A stretch of 64,000 nt of DNA from Staphylococcus phage vB_SauM-UFV_DC4, in the sequence record MZ779063.1, one strand, 5' to 3'. Numbering within the stretch: position 1 is the stretch's first letter; each line of letters opens with the position of its first letter. The notes below the pieces were generated by a model. That model was not told where the DNA came from. It saw only the letters and a list, made by a program, of their open reading frames with translations, and ran no database searches. This document shows positions 56,060 through 59,474 of the stretch, one piece after another. Made by a program: the position numbers and the translations under genes.

Positions 56060-56305
56060 ATGATATTTAATATTCTAATAGCAATTGCATATGAGATGCT
56101 TGTTTCTTTAGGTTTAGGTGTTTCAGCTTTTTATATATCTTTATTTTTATTAAGATATATAAAAAATAATATTATCAAGAAAGAAATTAAAAATGAAAAT
56201 AGAAAGTTATTTTATTTTTCATTATTAATAGTTATAATATTTATGTCAATAAAATCATACGTTGATATAAAATTAAGTATTATAGAACAAATATTGAAAA
56301 TGTAA
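56060..56305 (+). CDS. small membrane protein
   Basis: RBS GAAGGGAGGAA; 2 TM. Confidence 0.55.
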   Translation: MIFNILIAIAYEMLVSLGLGVSAFYISLFLLRYIKNNIIKKEIKNENRKLFYFSLLIVIIFMSIKSYVDIKLSIIEQILKM

Positions 56306-56375
56306 AAAGCGTAACATAAGATATTTTAATTATATATTATAATTATGAAGATATAATAATATTAATTATATCTTT
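56305..56375 (+). promoter_or_regulatory. repeated promoter module 1: AAAAGCGTAACATAAGATATTTTAATTATATATTATAATTATGAAGA plus hairpin AAGATATAAT/ATTATATCTT
   Basis: About 45 nt nearly identical to the modules at 57338 and 58038. Confidence 0.55.
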
Positions 56376-56399
56376 AATAAAAATAAAGGAGAAATTAAA

Positions 56400-56678
56400 A
56401 TGACAGAATTTGAAAATGAAATTAAAGTATCAAAAGAGGAGAAGAAGATTAAAAGATTTATTGATCAAGGTATTGATAATTTATCTGATACTGTAGGAGA
56501 GAATATTGAAGGTATTCCATTATCTTTAACTGATTATTTTCCTAAAATAAAGAAATTAATTATTAAATTAATTGATCGAGAAGAAAGTGATGAAATTAAA
56601 ATGACAAATGAATTAGGTGAAGTATTTAAATTTAATAGAACTTCACACGATATTTATTTAACATCAACTAAATTTTAA
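56400..56678 (+). CDS. hypothetical protein
   Basis: RBS AAAGGAGAAA; 92 aa. Confidence 0.55.
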   Translation: MTEFENEIKVSKEEKKIKRFIDQGIDNLSDTVGENIEGIPLSLTDYFPKIKKLIIKLIDREESDEIKMTNELGEVFKFNRTSHDIYLTSTKF

Positions 56679-56724
56679 TGAAAACTTTCTATGATCCAAC
56701 AATAAAATTAAAGGTGTGGTATGT

Positions 56725-57348
56725 ATGATTAAAGTCAATGAGCTATTAACAGAAGTTAAGGAAATAAAAACAAATGACAGTTATACGAAATTAATAAATG
56801 AGTATAGAGATATTATTAATGAAGAATATATATCTTATAAACCGTTAAAAGATTATTACAATTTTATTATATATTATCTAGAGAAATCTAGAAATCAAGC
56901 ATTGGAATCTAACAACTTTAATGAATCCAATTTAAATATCAAATTATTAATAGAAGATCTAATGATATTAAAAGATATTGTTAAATCTAATATTTTTGAT
57001 ACTAAAGAAGTAATCAGATCTACTGGGTTTAAATTAACAAATGGTAGTACATTTGATAGAGTTATCAAATACATTAAAGATAAACTAGATGAATTAATTA
57101 TAGAAATAAATTCAAATAATTATAAATATCAAAATATCTATTTCTATCTACCTGAACTAAATAATCTATTGCATAATACAATTCATATAGAACGTGTTTT
57201 AGATAAATATAAGAATAATGTAGATATTATTAATATAAATAAATATAATTTATTTGAAATGATGCCTTGTAATGATATTATGGATAAAGATGAATTTTAT
57301 ATAATGGTTAATCATTTATATGATTTAGGTGTTTTAGAAAAAGCGTAA
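56725..57348 (+). CDS. hypothetical protein
   Basis: RBS AAAGGTGTGG (track start 56716). Confidence 0.55.
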   Translation: MIKVNELLTEVKEIKTNDSYTKLINEYRDIINEEYISYKPLKDYYNFIIYYLEKSRNQALESNNFNESNLNIKLLIEDLMILKDIVKSNIFDTKEVIRSTGFKLTNGSTFDRVIKYIKDKLDELIIEINSNNYKYQNIYFYLPELNNLLHNTIHIERVLDKYKNNVDIININKYNLFEMMPCNDIMDKDEFYIMVNHLYDLGVLEKA

Positions 57349-57408
57349 CATGTAATAAAATAAGTATATATTATAATTATGAAGAAAGATAAAGTATTAA
57401 TATCTTTC
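57338..57408 (+). promoter_or_regulatory. repeated promoter module 2: AAAAGCGTAACATGTAATAAAATAAGTATATATTATAATTATGAAGAAAGA plus hairpin GAAAGAT/ATCTTTC
   Basis: Overlaps the 3' end (LEKA) of the upstream gene. Confidence 0.55.
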
Positions 57409-57435
57409 TAAATAAATCAAATGGAGGAATTTAAA

Positions 57436-57606
57436 ATGAAAAAGAATTTATTATTAAAATCAGCAGTGGGATTTGGGTTAGGTATTGTATTAGGTGTAGT
57501 AAGTAATAAAATTGATGAAATGGTTATGCAGAAGGAAATGGAAAAGCAAATCTTTAAAAGAGCTTCAGAAATAACTTTTGAACATCCATTCAATAATCTA
57601 AAATAA
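57436..57606 (+). CDS. small membrane peptide (56 aa); paralog of 58134..58238
   Basis: RBS ATGGAGGAATTTAAAATG, identical to the one at 58865; shared GFGLGIV core. Confidence 0.5.
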   Translation: MKKNLLLKSAVGFGLGIVLGVVSNKIDEMVMQKEMEKQIFKRASEITFEHPFNNLK

Positions 57607-57687
57607 AGGAGGAAAGAGGATAATTGTTTTAAAGACCTAATGGACAAGGATCAAGTTCATTAGGTCTATAATTTTCTATGATCCAAA
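57605..57687 (+). repeat. conserved ~85-nt structured non-coding element, copy 1: AAGGAGGAAAGAGGATAATTG, hairpin AGACCTAATGGAC/GTTCATTAGGTCT, then TTTTCTATGATCCA
   Basis: About 90% identical to 58236-58322; contains nested inverted repeats GGATCA/TGATCC. Confidence 0.55.
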
Positions 57688-57709
57688 AAATAAAAAGGAG
57701 CTAAAATCA

Positions 57710-58024
57710 ATGAATAACAAAACTAAATTAGCAGAATTAAGAAAAGAATTAAAAATCGTATATTCGGATATACAATTGAGCAAAACAAGTACTATAGAAG
57801 AAAGACTTCACAAGAAAAAGGAAAGACTAATTAAAGAAATTAATGAACTATTAGAAAAAGATCAAAATGTTTTCGATAGAGAAAAACATATAGCAAAAGT
57901 TAAAGATCAGAATAACGATAACATTCACAAGGGATCAGATGAATTTTCTAAGGCAGGTAGACTCCATAGAAAATATCAGAAGCAAGATAAACACAACATT
58001 TTCAATAATCCAGTACAAGATTAA
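57710..58024 (+). CDS. hypothetical protein; paralog of 58536..58841
   Basis: Shared C-terminus ...SDEFSKAGRLHRKYQ / ...SDYAKAGRLHQSFQ. Confidence 0.6.
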   Translation: MNNKTKLAELRKELKIVYSDIQLSKTSTIEERLHKKKERLIKEINELLEKDQNVFDREKHIAKVKDQNNDNIHKGSDEFSKAGRLHRKYQKQDKHNIFNNPVQD

Positions 58025-58037
58025 AAAGTTGAATTTG

Positions 58038-58107
58038 AAAAAGCGTAACGTAAGATATTTTAATTATATATTATAATAATGAAGAAAGAGATTATCATTA
58101 ACTCTTT
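58038..58107 (+). promoter_or_regulatory. repeated promoter module 3: AAAAGCGTAACGTAAGATATTTTAATTATATATTATAATAATGAAGAAAGAG plus hairpin GAAAGAG/CTCTTTC
   Basis: Third copy of the module. Confidence 0.55.
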
Positions 58108-58133
58108 CTAATAAATTAAAAGGAGAAATTATT

Positions 58134-58238
58134 ATGAAAAACTTAGTATTGAAATTAGTAGCAGGATTTGGATTAGGAATTGTGATGGCAGTTGTTTTAG
58201 ACAAGATTGAAGAAATGACGTTCTCTAATTTAAAATAA
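58134..58238 (+). CDS. small membrane peptide (34 aa); not in the track
   Basis: RBS AAAAGGAGAAA; MKNLVLKLVAGFGLGIVMAVVLDKIEEMTFSNLK, paralog of 57436..57606. Confidence 0.4.
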   Translation: MKNLVLKLVAGFGLGIVMAVVLDKIEEMTFSNLK

Positions 58239-58322
58239 AGGAGGAAAGAGGATAATTGATTTAAAGACCTAATGAACATAATGGATCAAGTTCATTAGGT
58301 CTATAATTTTCTATGATCCAAA
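58236..58322 (+). repeat. conserved ~85-nt structured non-coding element, copy 2
   Basis: AAGGAGGAAAGAGGATAATTGATTTAAAGACCTAATGAACATAATGGATCAAGTTCATTAGGTCTATAATTTTCTATGATCCAA. Confidence 0.55.
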
Positions 58323-58353
58323 CTAAAACTAAAAATAAAAAGGAGAAATTAAA

Positions 58354-58530
58354 ATGTTAGAATTAAATGGAATTGAATTTGTAAATGAAAAGGAAATTAA
58401 AGAAGAGGAATTATTATTTAATTATTCAGATGAAGCAAGATATCCATCTGAACAGGCTTATAGAGAAGTAGATTTAATCATTGAGAGCTTCGACAATACA
58501 GCTTTCGGATTAAGAAAATGGGGAGTGTAA
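58354..58530 (+). CDS. small hypothetical protein (58 aa); not in the track
   Basis: RBS AAAGGAGAAATTAAAATG; MLELNGIEFVNEKEIKEEELLFNYSDEARYPSEQAYREVDLIIESFDNTAFGLRKWGV. Confidence 0.4.
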   Translation: MLELNGIEFVNEKEIKEEELLFNYSDEARYPSEQAYREVDLIIESFDNTAFGLRKWGV

Positions 58531-58535
58531 TTAAA

Positions 58536-58841
58536 ATGGTCAGAGAAGAAAAAATCAAACAAATGAAACAAGAATTACAAGCAATTTTAGACAAAGAAAT
58601 TAGGTTTAATGGTAAACCAATTTCAAATAAACAATTTGAGAGAAAATTAGAACTAATGAAACAAATAGAAAAGTTAAAATTTGACATTAGATCAGAAAGA
58701 TATCTGAGAAATGTCAAAAAGAATAAAATCACTGAGTTTAAGGGTAAAAGTGATTATGCGAAAGCAGGAAGACTACATCAATCTTTCCAAAGTAAAGAAG
58801 AGCATAAAATATGGAAAGACGATTTATTAGTAATTCAATAA
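58536..58841 (+). CDS. hypothetical protein; paralog of 57710..58024
   Basis: RBS GGGGAG 10 nt upstream (track start 58518 lies inside the upstream ORF). Confidence 0.55.
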   Translation: MVREEKIKQMKQELQAILDKEIRFNGKPISNKQFERKLELMKQIEKLKFDIRSERYLRNVKKNKITEFKGKSDYAKAGRLHQSFQSKEEHKIWKDDLLVIQ

Positions 58842-58864
58842 TATATTAAATGGAGGAATTTAAA

Positions 58865-59059
58865 ATGAAAAAGATTATTAAATTAAAAACTGAGTATGCA
58901 TTAATTTTAGGAATGTTAGTTGGACTATTATTAGGATTATTAACTATGAATTTCTTTTTAGCGTTAGATATTATGTTCATGACAACTTTAGCATTTGTAG
59001 GTATGAATCATTATATCGGTGAAAAAAGAATGAATAATAGAAAAGGGGAAGTAAATTAA
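58865..59059 (+). CDS. small membrane protein (2 TM)
   Basis: RBS ATGGAGGAATTTAAAATG (track start 58850 is the ATG inside the SD). Confidence 0.55.
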   Translation: MKKIIKLKTEYALILGMLVGLLLGLLTMNFFLALDIMFMTTLAFVGMNHYIGEKRMNNRKGEVN

Positions 59060-59060
59060 T

Positions 59061-59255
59061 ATGCAGAATAAAATTAAGATAAAACCATGGATAGTATTTT
59101 GGACCGTATTTATTATTGGATTTATAGTTGGAGAAATTCTAGGTTATGTAGAAGGTAAATCATTGTTTGTAGGTATCGTATCAGCATTTATTTGTTTAGG
59201 AATTAATTATATGGTTGGAGAAATTAGAAGAGATATTATTAGAAATAGAAAATAA
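59061..59255 (+). CDS. small membrane protein (2 TM)
   Basis: Start overlaps the upstream stop (TAATATG); hydrophobic. Confidence 0.55.
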   Translation: MQNKIKIKPWIVFWTVFIIGFIVGEILGYVEGKSLFVGIVSAFICLGINYMVGEIRRDIIRNRK

Positions 59256-59288
59256 AAATTAATTAAATTATAAGGAGTTGAATTGGAT

Positions 59289-59396
59289 ATGTTATTAGAA
59301 AACTTCATTACAATTATCGTGTTACTTGGCTTAATGAAATTTACAGGTTGTTTCAAATTTATGAAAGAAATCTGGTCTAACAAAGGTAACAAATAG
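59289..59396 (+). CDS. small peptide (35 aa); not in the track
   Basis: Leader AAGGAGTTGAATTGGATATG (conserved initiation motif); MLLENFITIIVLLGLMKFTGCFKFMKEIWSNKGNK. Confidence 0.4.
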   Translation: MLLENFITIIVLLGLMKFTGCFKFMKEIWSNKGNK

Positions 59397-59474
59397 CAAT
59401 AAAAGAGTGGATTATTTTCTATGATCCACTCTACATATTTAAATTAAAAAAAAAAACGAAAAGAGGAAATTAAA

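Follow-up and report, generated by a model that had tools for sequence, protein, structure and literature searches.

Jumbo phages with RNA polymerases of their own attract study both as therapeutics and as models for transcription without help from the host, and their early accessory genes are nearly all function-less in annotation. In AR9, the early promoters, mapped by differential RNA sequencing and primer extension, have the form AAATATATATTAT-N6-G(+1), and it is the injected virion polymerase that transcribes from them (Lavysh et al. 2017, PMC5312081). The MarsHill-like clade is AR9/PBS1-like and encodes both virion and non-virion multisubunit RNA polymerases; the motif TATATTAT was predicted upstream of 29 MarsHill genes, and a late promoter was not found by the MarsHill authors with MEME (bioRxiv 10.1101/2020.12.14.422802). 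In T4-type phages, modular shuffling is mediated by PeSL/PmSL (promoter-early stem-loop) elements (Arbiol et al. 2010, PMC2839356; Comeau et al. 2014, PMC4122927). A PeSL has a terminator stem-loop and, right behind it, a host promoter of the sigma-70-like type, then a Shine-Dalgarno sequence and a start codon. Here we describe a region of Staphylococcus phage vB_SauM-UFV_DC4 (sequence record MZ779063.1), at positions 55800-60000 of the 64,000-nucleotide (nt) stretch that was analysed (the window), in which early-promoter modules, a hairpin-bearing intercistronic element and a 13-mer recur between small genes. The region is likely to be a hyperplastic (fast-evolving accessory) early-gene block of an S6-like Staphylococcus jumbo phage, and it illustrates how the early accessory genes of this Staphylococcus clade are packaged and exchanged as small units between reusable signals.

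The general nature of the region is largely explained by known biology. No description of the shuffled cassette region of this phage group was found in the literature searched, nor of the stem-loop rule at +1, the portable intercistronic module and the invariant 13-mer set out below.

Setting of the region and genomes compared

The interval 55800-60000 was read closely by repeat finding, listing of open reading frames (ORFs) and pattern searches with shuffles. All numbering is that of the window and all listed features lie on the + strand. The repeats of the region are far above chance in these pattern searches. A first-pass annotation, made from the letters alone, had read the region as a reshuffling accessory block built by duplication or recombination of promoter-gene cassettes. 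This is supported by the eight gene/module orders among nine related phages, by breakpoints at repeated signals and by two sequence patches, and nearly all of the elements it had listed lie where it put them or 1-4 nt away.

The nearest record is Staphylococcus jumbo phage S6 (LC680885), with 99.6% identity over the 4.2 kb from 55800 to 60000. Across the window the relation to LC680885 is that of a mosaic, other blocks matching at 93-98% and several gaps separating colinear BLAST segments, so that the source is a close relative of S6 other than the isolate deposited. The clade compared comprised nine genomes, namely S6, PALS_2, MarsHill, Madawaska, LY01, AH12, PB50, Machias and the S. lentus phage SA1; Madawaska was placed by matches of equal extent and identity to MarsHill rather than through a map of its own. 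Just upstream of the region are the genes for the non-virion RNA polymerase beta and beta' and for primase. An intrinsic-terminator-like hairpin with a T-run (55948..56001), 3' of a gene for a 243-amino-acid (aa) membrane protein, closes the upstream operon. It is the sole site in 55500-60000 to pass a terminator scan, and the homologous MarsHill site is annotated as a terminator.

Early promoters

Three near-identical modules of ~45 nt had been claimed, and these were recovered at 56305, 57339 and 58039 as a direct-repeat family (D2). Their core is TATATATTAT. The full pattern TATATATTAT-N6-G is present exactly at 56331, 57365 and 58065 and again in a fourth exact promoter copy at 56026, which is without the AAAAGC part; the corresponding predicted +1 positions are 56347, 57381, 58081 and 56042. 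Searched as TATATATTATAATWATGAAG, the motif yields seven matches in the window, four of them exact, against 0.12 expected from shuffles. The AT-rich core, the 6-nt spacing and the G start are as in AR9/phiKZ-like early promoters, and so is the placement, in many copies, in intergenic positions upstream of co-oriented genes. By sequence, the core of the modules can thus be assigned to the AR9-type class of virion RNA polymerase early promoters, with promoter activity and the position of +1 predicted by analogy with the AR9 experiments. In addition, a 29-nt stretch of the module matches an annotated promoter of Yersinia phage phiR1-37. The complete S6 genome contains 39 promoter matches at no more than one mismatch, and the strong ones are nearly all positioned 30-80 nt 5' of a start codon.

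Unlike AR9 early promoters, those of the region form a local subfamily marked by GTAAY (at -36) and by an AATWATG(+1)AAGA start. GTAAY is found exactly 15 nt 5' of the core in 24 of 24 promoters of the region from seven phages, as against six of the 39 genome-wide in S6. The three bases preceding the core are also off-consensus, with AGA, AAT, AAG and AAT (at 56026, 56331, 57365 and 58065, respectively) in place of the AAA of AR9.

The first of the four promoters (P0, 56006..56042) is an exact match consisting of GTAAC at 56006..56010, 15 nt, the core at 56026-56035 and the predicted +1 G at 56042. The three modules, delimited by repeats and folding, each begin with the sequence AAAAGCGTAAC and end in a stem-loop. 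In module 1 (56305..56375), AAAAGCGTAAC is at 56305-56315, the core at 56331-56340, the predicted +1 at 56347 and the stem-loop at 56347-56375. The same elements occupy 57339-57349 (inside the 3' end of a gene of family fam6), 57365-57374, 57381 and 57383-57409 in module 2 (57339..57409), and 58039-58049, 58065-58074, 58081 and 58083-58109 in module 3 (58039..58109).

Predicted stem-loops at the 5' ends of early transcripts

Stem-loops that stabilise mRNA from its 5' terminus are familiar from Gram-positive systems, as in the leaders of ermC and aprE and in the stabiliser of phage SP82. In the present region a different hairpin follows each module, as had been noted, with folding energies of -7.6 to -9.6 kcal/mol (-8.2 kcal/mol, z = -3.3, for module 1). 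This was assessed genome-wide through the 39 best promoter matches of S6, whose segments from +1 to +40 fold with a mean of -8.3 kcal/mol, compared with -2.75 kcal/mol at random G-starting sites; the stems usually begin at +1 to +3. A stem-loop after the early promoter is a genome-wide rule and not specific to the cassettes. Stem sequences differ between orthologous and paralogous promoters with the pairing kept, and in this region compensatory changes are seen at two positions.

The likeness to Gram-positive stabilisers lies in the placement, 0-3 nt from the predicted 5' end, and in this combination of varying sequence and retained pairing. The difference is that here the predicted structures are near-universal for one phage promoter class. 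A further difference separates the clade from AR9: among the AR9 early promoters examined, which come from a 50-kb stretch, a hairpin of this kind is lacking (0 to -3.1 kcal/mol), whereas the predicted early transcripts of this clade open with a stem-loop. Hairpins at early promoters are mentioned neither in the AR9 paper (PMC5312081) nor in a review of jumbo-phage RNA polymerases.

P0 is without a 5' hairpin in S6-type phages, while its orthologues in AH12, PB50 and Machias have one. In the S6-type phages the predicted P0 transcript leads straight into a Shine-Dalgarno sequence (GAAGGGAGG; 56026-56060). Three of the four transcripts would start with a 5'-terminal stem-loop of variable sequence, which may stabilise the mRNA 5' end; alternatively, the stem-loop could act in promoter escape or have a role at the DNA level.

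Elsewhere in the window four dispersed early promoters (7756, 19435, 47928 and 53978) have a common 5' hairpin start (GAGGTAATG...CATTACCTC), which indicates that promoter-plus-hairpin modules have been copied around the genome, beyond this region.

A gene 3' end within the promoter modules

The first part of the module has a different origin. AAAAGCGTAAC is exact at 56305, 57339 and 58039, and the complete 267-kb S6 genome contains it in only these three places. Across relatives it represents the last codons (..EKA*) of the ~207-aa gene family fam6, and in the window it is supplied by those of the 207-aa fam6 gene S6_2290 (56725..57348). The claim that each module overlaps the last codons of the preceding gene holds for module 2 only (..LEKA*). 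Module 1 merely abuts the stop codon, and module 3 sits 14 nt past the stop of the gene at 57710-58024, the '..KA*' read there being a 21-nt relic of a deleted gene. Comparison with relatives identifies this relic (58028..58048) as the last seven codons, VEFEKA*, of a second fam6 gene (fam6').

The second, diverged fam6 gene (222-255 aa) is intact in MarsHill, PB50 and Machias, where it lies between fam8a and the third promoter, while in S6, PALS_2 and AH12 only its final 20-35 nt are left. Since the left endpoints differ between S6 and PALS_2/AH12, we infer at least two independent deletions, both of which spare AAAAGCGTAAC and the promoter. With fam6' deleted down to its last seven codons, AAAAGCGTAAC comes to look like part of the promoter. 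A role as a promoter element was rejected, a gene 3' end or relic being the better account of AAAAGCGTAAC; all that the modules have in common with P0 here is GTAAY at its fixed spacing. The AAAAGCGTAAC half of the module is a hitch-hiking gene 3' end.

The intercistronic T-M element

A conserved non-coding element of ~85 nt had been noted behind each of two small-peptide genes, and repeat families D9 (91%) and D5 (100%) bear this out. The element, here termed T-M (~85-95 nt), consists of a purine-rich tract resembling a Shine-Dalgarno sequence, a 13-bp hairpin (T), ATAAT and a 13-mer (M; TTTCTATGATCCA). Its first letters are the stop codon of a small ORF, either a fam7 peptide or the unrelated basic peptide fam18, and it precedes at least four unrelated genes: fam8, fam9, fam17 and, in SA1, fam6. 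T-M is confined to these nine phages, with 1-3 copies per genome, and Rfam gave no match for it or for the region. Copy 1 (57604..57685; families D5 and D9) has the purine tract at 57607-57626, the arms of T at 57633-57645 and 57655-57667, ATAAT, and M at 57673-57685. Copy 2 (58236..58320), defined by repeats and folding, has T from 58265 and M at 58308-58320, and includes a 24-nt patch (58259-58282) that differs from S6.

Over 11 distinct copies, pairing in the T stem amounts to 98.6%; one C-G/U-A pair is compensatory, and the several G.U wobbles of the stem pair only as + strand RNA. The purine tract pairs with M, so that T is extended to an irregular hairpin of ~26 bp (-24 kcal/mol, z about -4); the extended fold of copy 1 has -24.8 kcal/mol and z = -4.1. 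As an intrinsic terminator T offers a 13-bp covarying stem, but its tail is AUAAUUUUCUAU and its loop 9-12 nt; it was missed by the terminator scan and left unmarked by the MarsHill annotators, who annotated other terminators. The intergenic spaces of the five-gene block at 58354-59396 contain no early promoter and no AR9-type late motif, nor any antisense motif. Without a promoter of either known class, this block would have to be reached by read-through. Rather than a strong terminator, T-M would more likely be an element between cistrons for attenuation, processing or stability, unless M is a promoter.

Intercistronic hairpins processed by RNase III were reportedly described in the T7 early region by Dunn and Studier. 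T-M resembles these in being a long, irregular hairpin (~26 bp) with internal loops, located between early cistrons and conserved among copies within a genome. As in T7, cleavage would give the short mRNA on the upstream side a protective hairpin at its 3' end. Unlike T7, M also occurs free of a hairpin (at 56686), and both the host and its RNases are others.

Four further readings of the element were rejected. For a host sigma-A promoter at M or T-M, sequence inspection finds TATAAT in T-M copies only and no -35 at 16-18 nt. A pseudoknot between the loop of T (GGATCA) and M (TGATCC) is not supported, there being no covariation and three of 66 cells unpaired. Pairing with the purine tract, as a reason for the conservation of M, is possible in all T-M copies, but M is invariant and hence without covariation, and the copy at 56686 is unstructured. 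Finally, the tract before T might be a collapsed fam18 gene; the MAFFT alignment is ambiguous, and the better reading counts the tract with the module, which follows both fam7 and fam18.

The 13-mer M

A recurring motif had been noted at four places, and TTTCTATGATCCA is indeed exact at 56686, 57673, 58308 and 59416. Allowing one mismatch there are eight matches in the window, against 0.21 expected. This pyrimidine-rich sequence has eight exact copies in S6 compared with ~0.02 expected by our own base-composition estimate. Four of them are in this region, and the others are near a RecD-like helicase gene, near tRNA-Asn, near an AR9_g220 homologue and, antisense, in a coding sequence. Within the region M is invariant in more than 30 copies from eight phages, although its flanks diverge. 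It always lies 22-46 nt 5' of a start codon and moves with the downstream gene. A scan of IMG/VR for a 14-mer gave scattered single chance matches only.

The structural context of M varies. The first copy (56686..56698), 26 nt 5' of the fam6 start, is unstructured (fold z = +1.8) and lies inside an operon without a terminator. The fourth (59416-59428) is enclosed in a hairpin at 59404..59432, between a 35-aa ORF of family fam11 and the first fam12 gene (-16.8 kcal/mol, z = -4.8), and the SA1 orthologue of this junction hairpin keeps the stem by means of different arm sequences. In SA1, early promoter, hairpin and M share one 5' untranslated leader. This leader and the context at 56686 indicate that M alone is neither a required promoter nor an efficient terminator. 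Beyond the region, the helicase-side copy is retained in SA1 and Machias, where the spacer is only ~72% identical, and the copy behind the stop codon of the AR9_g220 homologue is kept in SA1 and cleanly absent from Machias.

M does not resemble an AR9-type late promoter, AACA-N6-T[A/G], as there is no AACA at -11 to -8. Upstream of S6 non-early genes AACA-N6-T[A/G] itself occurs 28 times in sense and 10 times in antisense orientation, with ~9 expected, and is enriched with the N6 spacing only; the intergenic DNA of the present region does not contain it. This suggests that the clade uses an AR9-like late-promoter motif. M was accordingly rejected as a general late promoter: it has eight exact copies per genome and no AACA, and the AR9-type motif accounts for the regions upstream of late genes.

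As to what M does, we lean tentatively towards a leader or intercistronic signal at the RNA level. A separate promoter class is a weaker candidate, and a DNA operator is improbable, as is, to a similar degree, some other function. It is possible, if doubtful, that M is an unrecognised cis-signal of Staphylococcus uracil-DNA jumbo phages which acts as a 5' cassette boundary (as a promoter of a third class, or else as an operator or a processing site in RNA that a phage factor reads) and as a preferred crossover point. If so, M and the 5' stem-loop of early transcripts would together amount to a clade-specific layer of gene control that AR9 is without.

Some further observations concern the M copies outside the region. 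In S6 (44464-44700) the helicase-side copy is in a divergent spacer, between a minus-strand early promoter and the RecD-like helicase gene, and is followed by ~200 nt that are extremely rich in A+T, have repeats of the TTATTAAT type and might be origin-like. The minus-strand copy at S6 115127-115139 is 22 nt upstream of tRNA-Asn, in a GTGGAcC/GaTCCAC hairpin beside 60 nt that are unusually G+C-rich; ARAGORN predicts a single tRNA at this locus and Rfam finds nothing else. M-like 12-mers within coding sequences (9269-9281 of the MarsHill segment examined, and four other phage segments) all encode F-Y-D-P in one frame. This shared coding indicates that some in-gene matches reflect a peptide motif and not a non-coding signal.

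Gene orders and breakpoints in related phages

With P for the early promoter, K for AAAAGCGTAAC and numbers for gene families, the order in S6-like phages and PALS_2 is P-[2]-K-P-[5]-M-[6]-K-P-[7]-T-M-[8]-K-P-[7']-T-M-[9][8b][10][10][11]-M-[12]x3. MarsHill has an extra [6'] 5' of the third K-P and an extra unit, [17][18]-T-M, between T-M repeats. [6'] and [18] are present also in PB50 and Machias, from which K-P-[5] is absent; AH12 too is without the K-P-[5] unit, and without [7']-T-M. In LY01 the order runs [5]-M-[8]-[6']..., with a junction that corresponds exactly to the left flank of the first M copy (M1) joined to the right flank of the second (M2). SA1 begins with [17][18] and has P and M fused in one leader.

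Comparison of S6 with 50 kb of MarsHill, in the early half, shows four true indels. A promoter lies 37 nt from a boundary of one and 11 nt from a boundary of another; the third abuts T-M, and the fourth has no connection with the modules. At a finer scale, the window differs from the S6 record at 17 positions in the 4.2 kb, and six of these fall in the 24 nt of 58259-58282. Each of the six makes T-M copy 2 of the S6 record identical to copy 1, an apparent signature of gene conversion unless it results from assembly collapse. A second patch, which covers the ribosome-binding site and first codons of a gene (58848..58874), is identical to 57419-57445 and found only in this lineage. Identity of the two ribosome-binding sites had already been pointed out; it proves to be longer than claimed, with 27 nt exact at 57419 and 58848.

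These arrangements would be accounted for by an ancestral unit, [fam6 - K-P - fam7 - T-M - fam8], that was duplicated in tandem and then decayed differentially, the second fam6 copy being deleted to its last seven codons in the present lineage. The short conserved P, T-M and M sequences may serve as substrates for homologous recombination and gene conversion, giving rise to gains and losses of cassettes and to copied patches, and such exchange and conversion may be ongoing between regulatory modules under strong purifying selection. The virion polymerase would express the region from several internal early promoters (four, closely spaced), two of which would drive tiny one-helix membrane peptides, while the levels of peptide messages relative to those downstream are probably governed by the stem-loops at the 5' ends together with the T-M structures between cistrons.

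The resemblance to PeSLs is that short, conserved, composite modules in a hyperplastic, ORFan-rich region are found at the boundaries of indels and replacements between close relatives, and that degraded or half elements occur beside deletions. With PeSLs, tandem copies recombine to give mini-circles or deletions; evidence for such recombination here would be indirect, in the form of the LY01 M1 x M2 junction and the conversion-like patch. The anatomy is different: the promoter here is that of the phage virion polymerase, its stem-loop lies downstream of +1, and the T-M hairpin module, with its invariant 13-mer behind the hairpin, stands apart from the promoter. The region is an analogue of PeSLs in logic and not a member of the class.

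Proposed recombination between modules and its alternatives

The closest approach to a PeSL would result if M were a promoter of a third, 'middle' class, used by the non-virion or a modified virion polymerase, in which case T-M would be a terminator-promoter composite and each block after M an independent unit. We regard this as rather unlikely. The placement of M and its movement with the downstream gene do speak for it, M-fam17 being common to MarsHill and SA1 with different left flanks, and the genes behind T-M have no other recognisable promoter. M contains TATG, the start motif of phiKZ late promoters (quoted in PMC5312081); tandem early and late promoters before one gene, which would fit the P-49 nt-M arrangement of SA1, are common in AR9 (PMC5312081); and M is kept beside the RecD-like helicase gene in three phages despite identity of only ~72% there. 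On the other hand, M misfits the motif enriched upstream of non-early S6 genes, has only eight exact copies per genome, one of them antisense inside a coding region, and at 56686 and in SA1 belongs to a transcription unit that another promoter already serves and that contains no terminator. A further copy, absent in Machias, follows immediately on a stop codon; a terminator comes right behind it, and no gene lies downstream. Far less probable still is that the promoter-peptide-hairpin units are addiction modules of type I toxin-antitoxin kind, with a toxic membrane peptide and an antisense RNA over its 3' end. The small hydrophobic peptides (34-56 aa), strong promoters, structured 5' end and long 3' hairpin would speak for this. 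Yet no early or late-type promoter motif occurs on the opposite strand anywhere in the region, Rfam gives no family, and the Pfam and PHROGs searches gave no significant family, toxins included, for the peptides. Moreover, the second peptide copy is dispensable in AH12, from which it is absent, and the same 3' module follows the unrelated fam18.

The modules might also be conserved regulatory signals and nothing more, the differences between phages being ordinary, tolerated illegitimate indels in which the modules have no causal part. This we consider unlikely, though P, T and M could be strongly conserved for their function alone, no module is involved in one of the four indels between S6 and MarsHill, and the left ends of the fam6' deletions are at different, non-repeat positions. 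What it leaves unexplained is a LY01 junction that is exactly as an M1 x M2 crossover predicts, the direct T-M repeats flanking the extra MarsHill unit, the cluster of six differences that homogenises two T-M copies, and the 27-nt identity between otherwise dissimilar gene starts. In addition, the regulatory modules are 90-100% identical where the accompanying fam8 paralogues share 26%, which argues that the latter are old. Recombination between the modules would thus be the probable cause of the rearrangements in this early-gene block. Several points weigh against this interpretation. Promoter use, read-through of T-M and the position of +1 are all inferred, and transcript data for any Staphylococcus jumbo phage were not found in the literature searched. 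P0, having no hairpin in this lineage, demonstrates that the hairpin is not obligatory. The breakpoint statistics derive from few events (the four indels, one of them unconnected with the modules); P and M would be highly conserved for their function in any case, and indels near them are hence no proof that they cause recombination; and the clustered differences in T-M copy 2 could be repeat collapse in one assembly. With nine genomes, the direction of change, duplication or deletion, cannot be rooted.

Genes and products

All products of the region are ORFans and most are small membrane proteins, nine of 14 having a strongly hydrophobic segment. Searches of Pfam, PHROGs and PDB sequences gave nothing significant for them save weak fam12 matches in PHROGs; fam6 has no homologues in any of the three. 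The gene after P0 (56060..56305, S6_2270), defined by ORF, annotation and hydropathy, encodes an 81-aa ORFan with two membrane helices and without a Pfam or PHROG family. It is followed by a 92-aa soluble ORFan, fam5 (56400..56678, S6_2280; ORF and annotation).

Two paralogous tiny membrane peptides had been proposed, correctly: the fam7 peptide (57436..57606, 56 aa), with one N-terminal hydrophobic helix (GFGLGIVLG), and fam7' (58134..58238, 34 aa), known from its ORF and by comparison, are 67% identical over 27 aa and have one hydrophobic helix each. Paralogous genes with an AGRLH block were said to follow each T-M element. The pair, fam8a (57710..58024, 104 aa, S6_2310), a charged and probably helical ORFan, and fam8b (58536-58841), is paralogous (26%, E = 5e-11 in a local database of 14 proteins), while the second gene is separated from T-M by an unrelated gene for a 58-aa ORFan (58354-58530). 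This 58-aa ORFan is the first gene of the promoter-less block of five small genes (58354..59396; ORF list and hydropathy), which continues with fam8b, the two-helix membrane proteins fam10a and fam10b (58865-59059 and 59061-59255) and fam11, an unannotated 35-aa membrane ORF (59289-59396). Both the 34-aa and the 35-aa membrane ORFs are conserved across related phages and missing from the S6 GenBank record.

Paralogous sets are formed by fam10a/b and by fam12a/b/c. The latter are three tandem genes (59475..60980, family D1) whose products, of 168, 155 and 158 aa, all have a membrane anchor at the N-terminus and a tail that is acidic and rich in Q/N. They share 33-36% identity, their tails are long and of low complexity, and the best of several weak PHROG matches is to 'lipoprotein' (E = 1e-5). 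Two minus-strand ORFs (57417-57647 and 58064-58279) are mirror images of the paralogous peptide genes and were treated as by-products of that paralogy.

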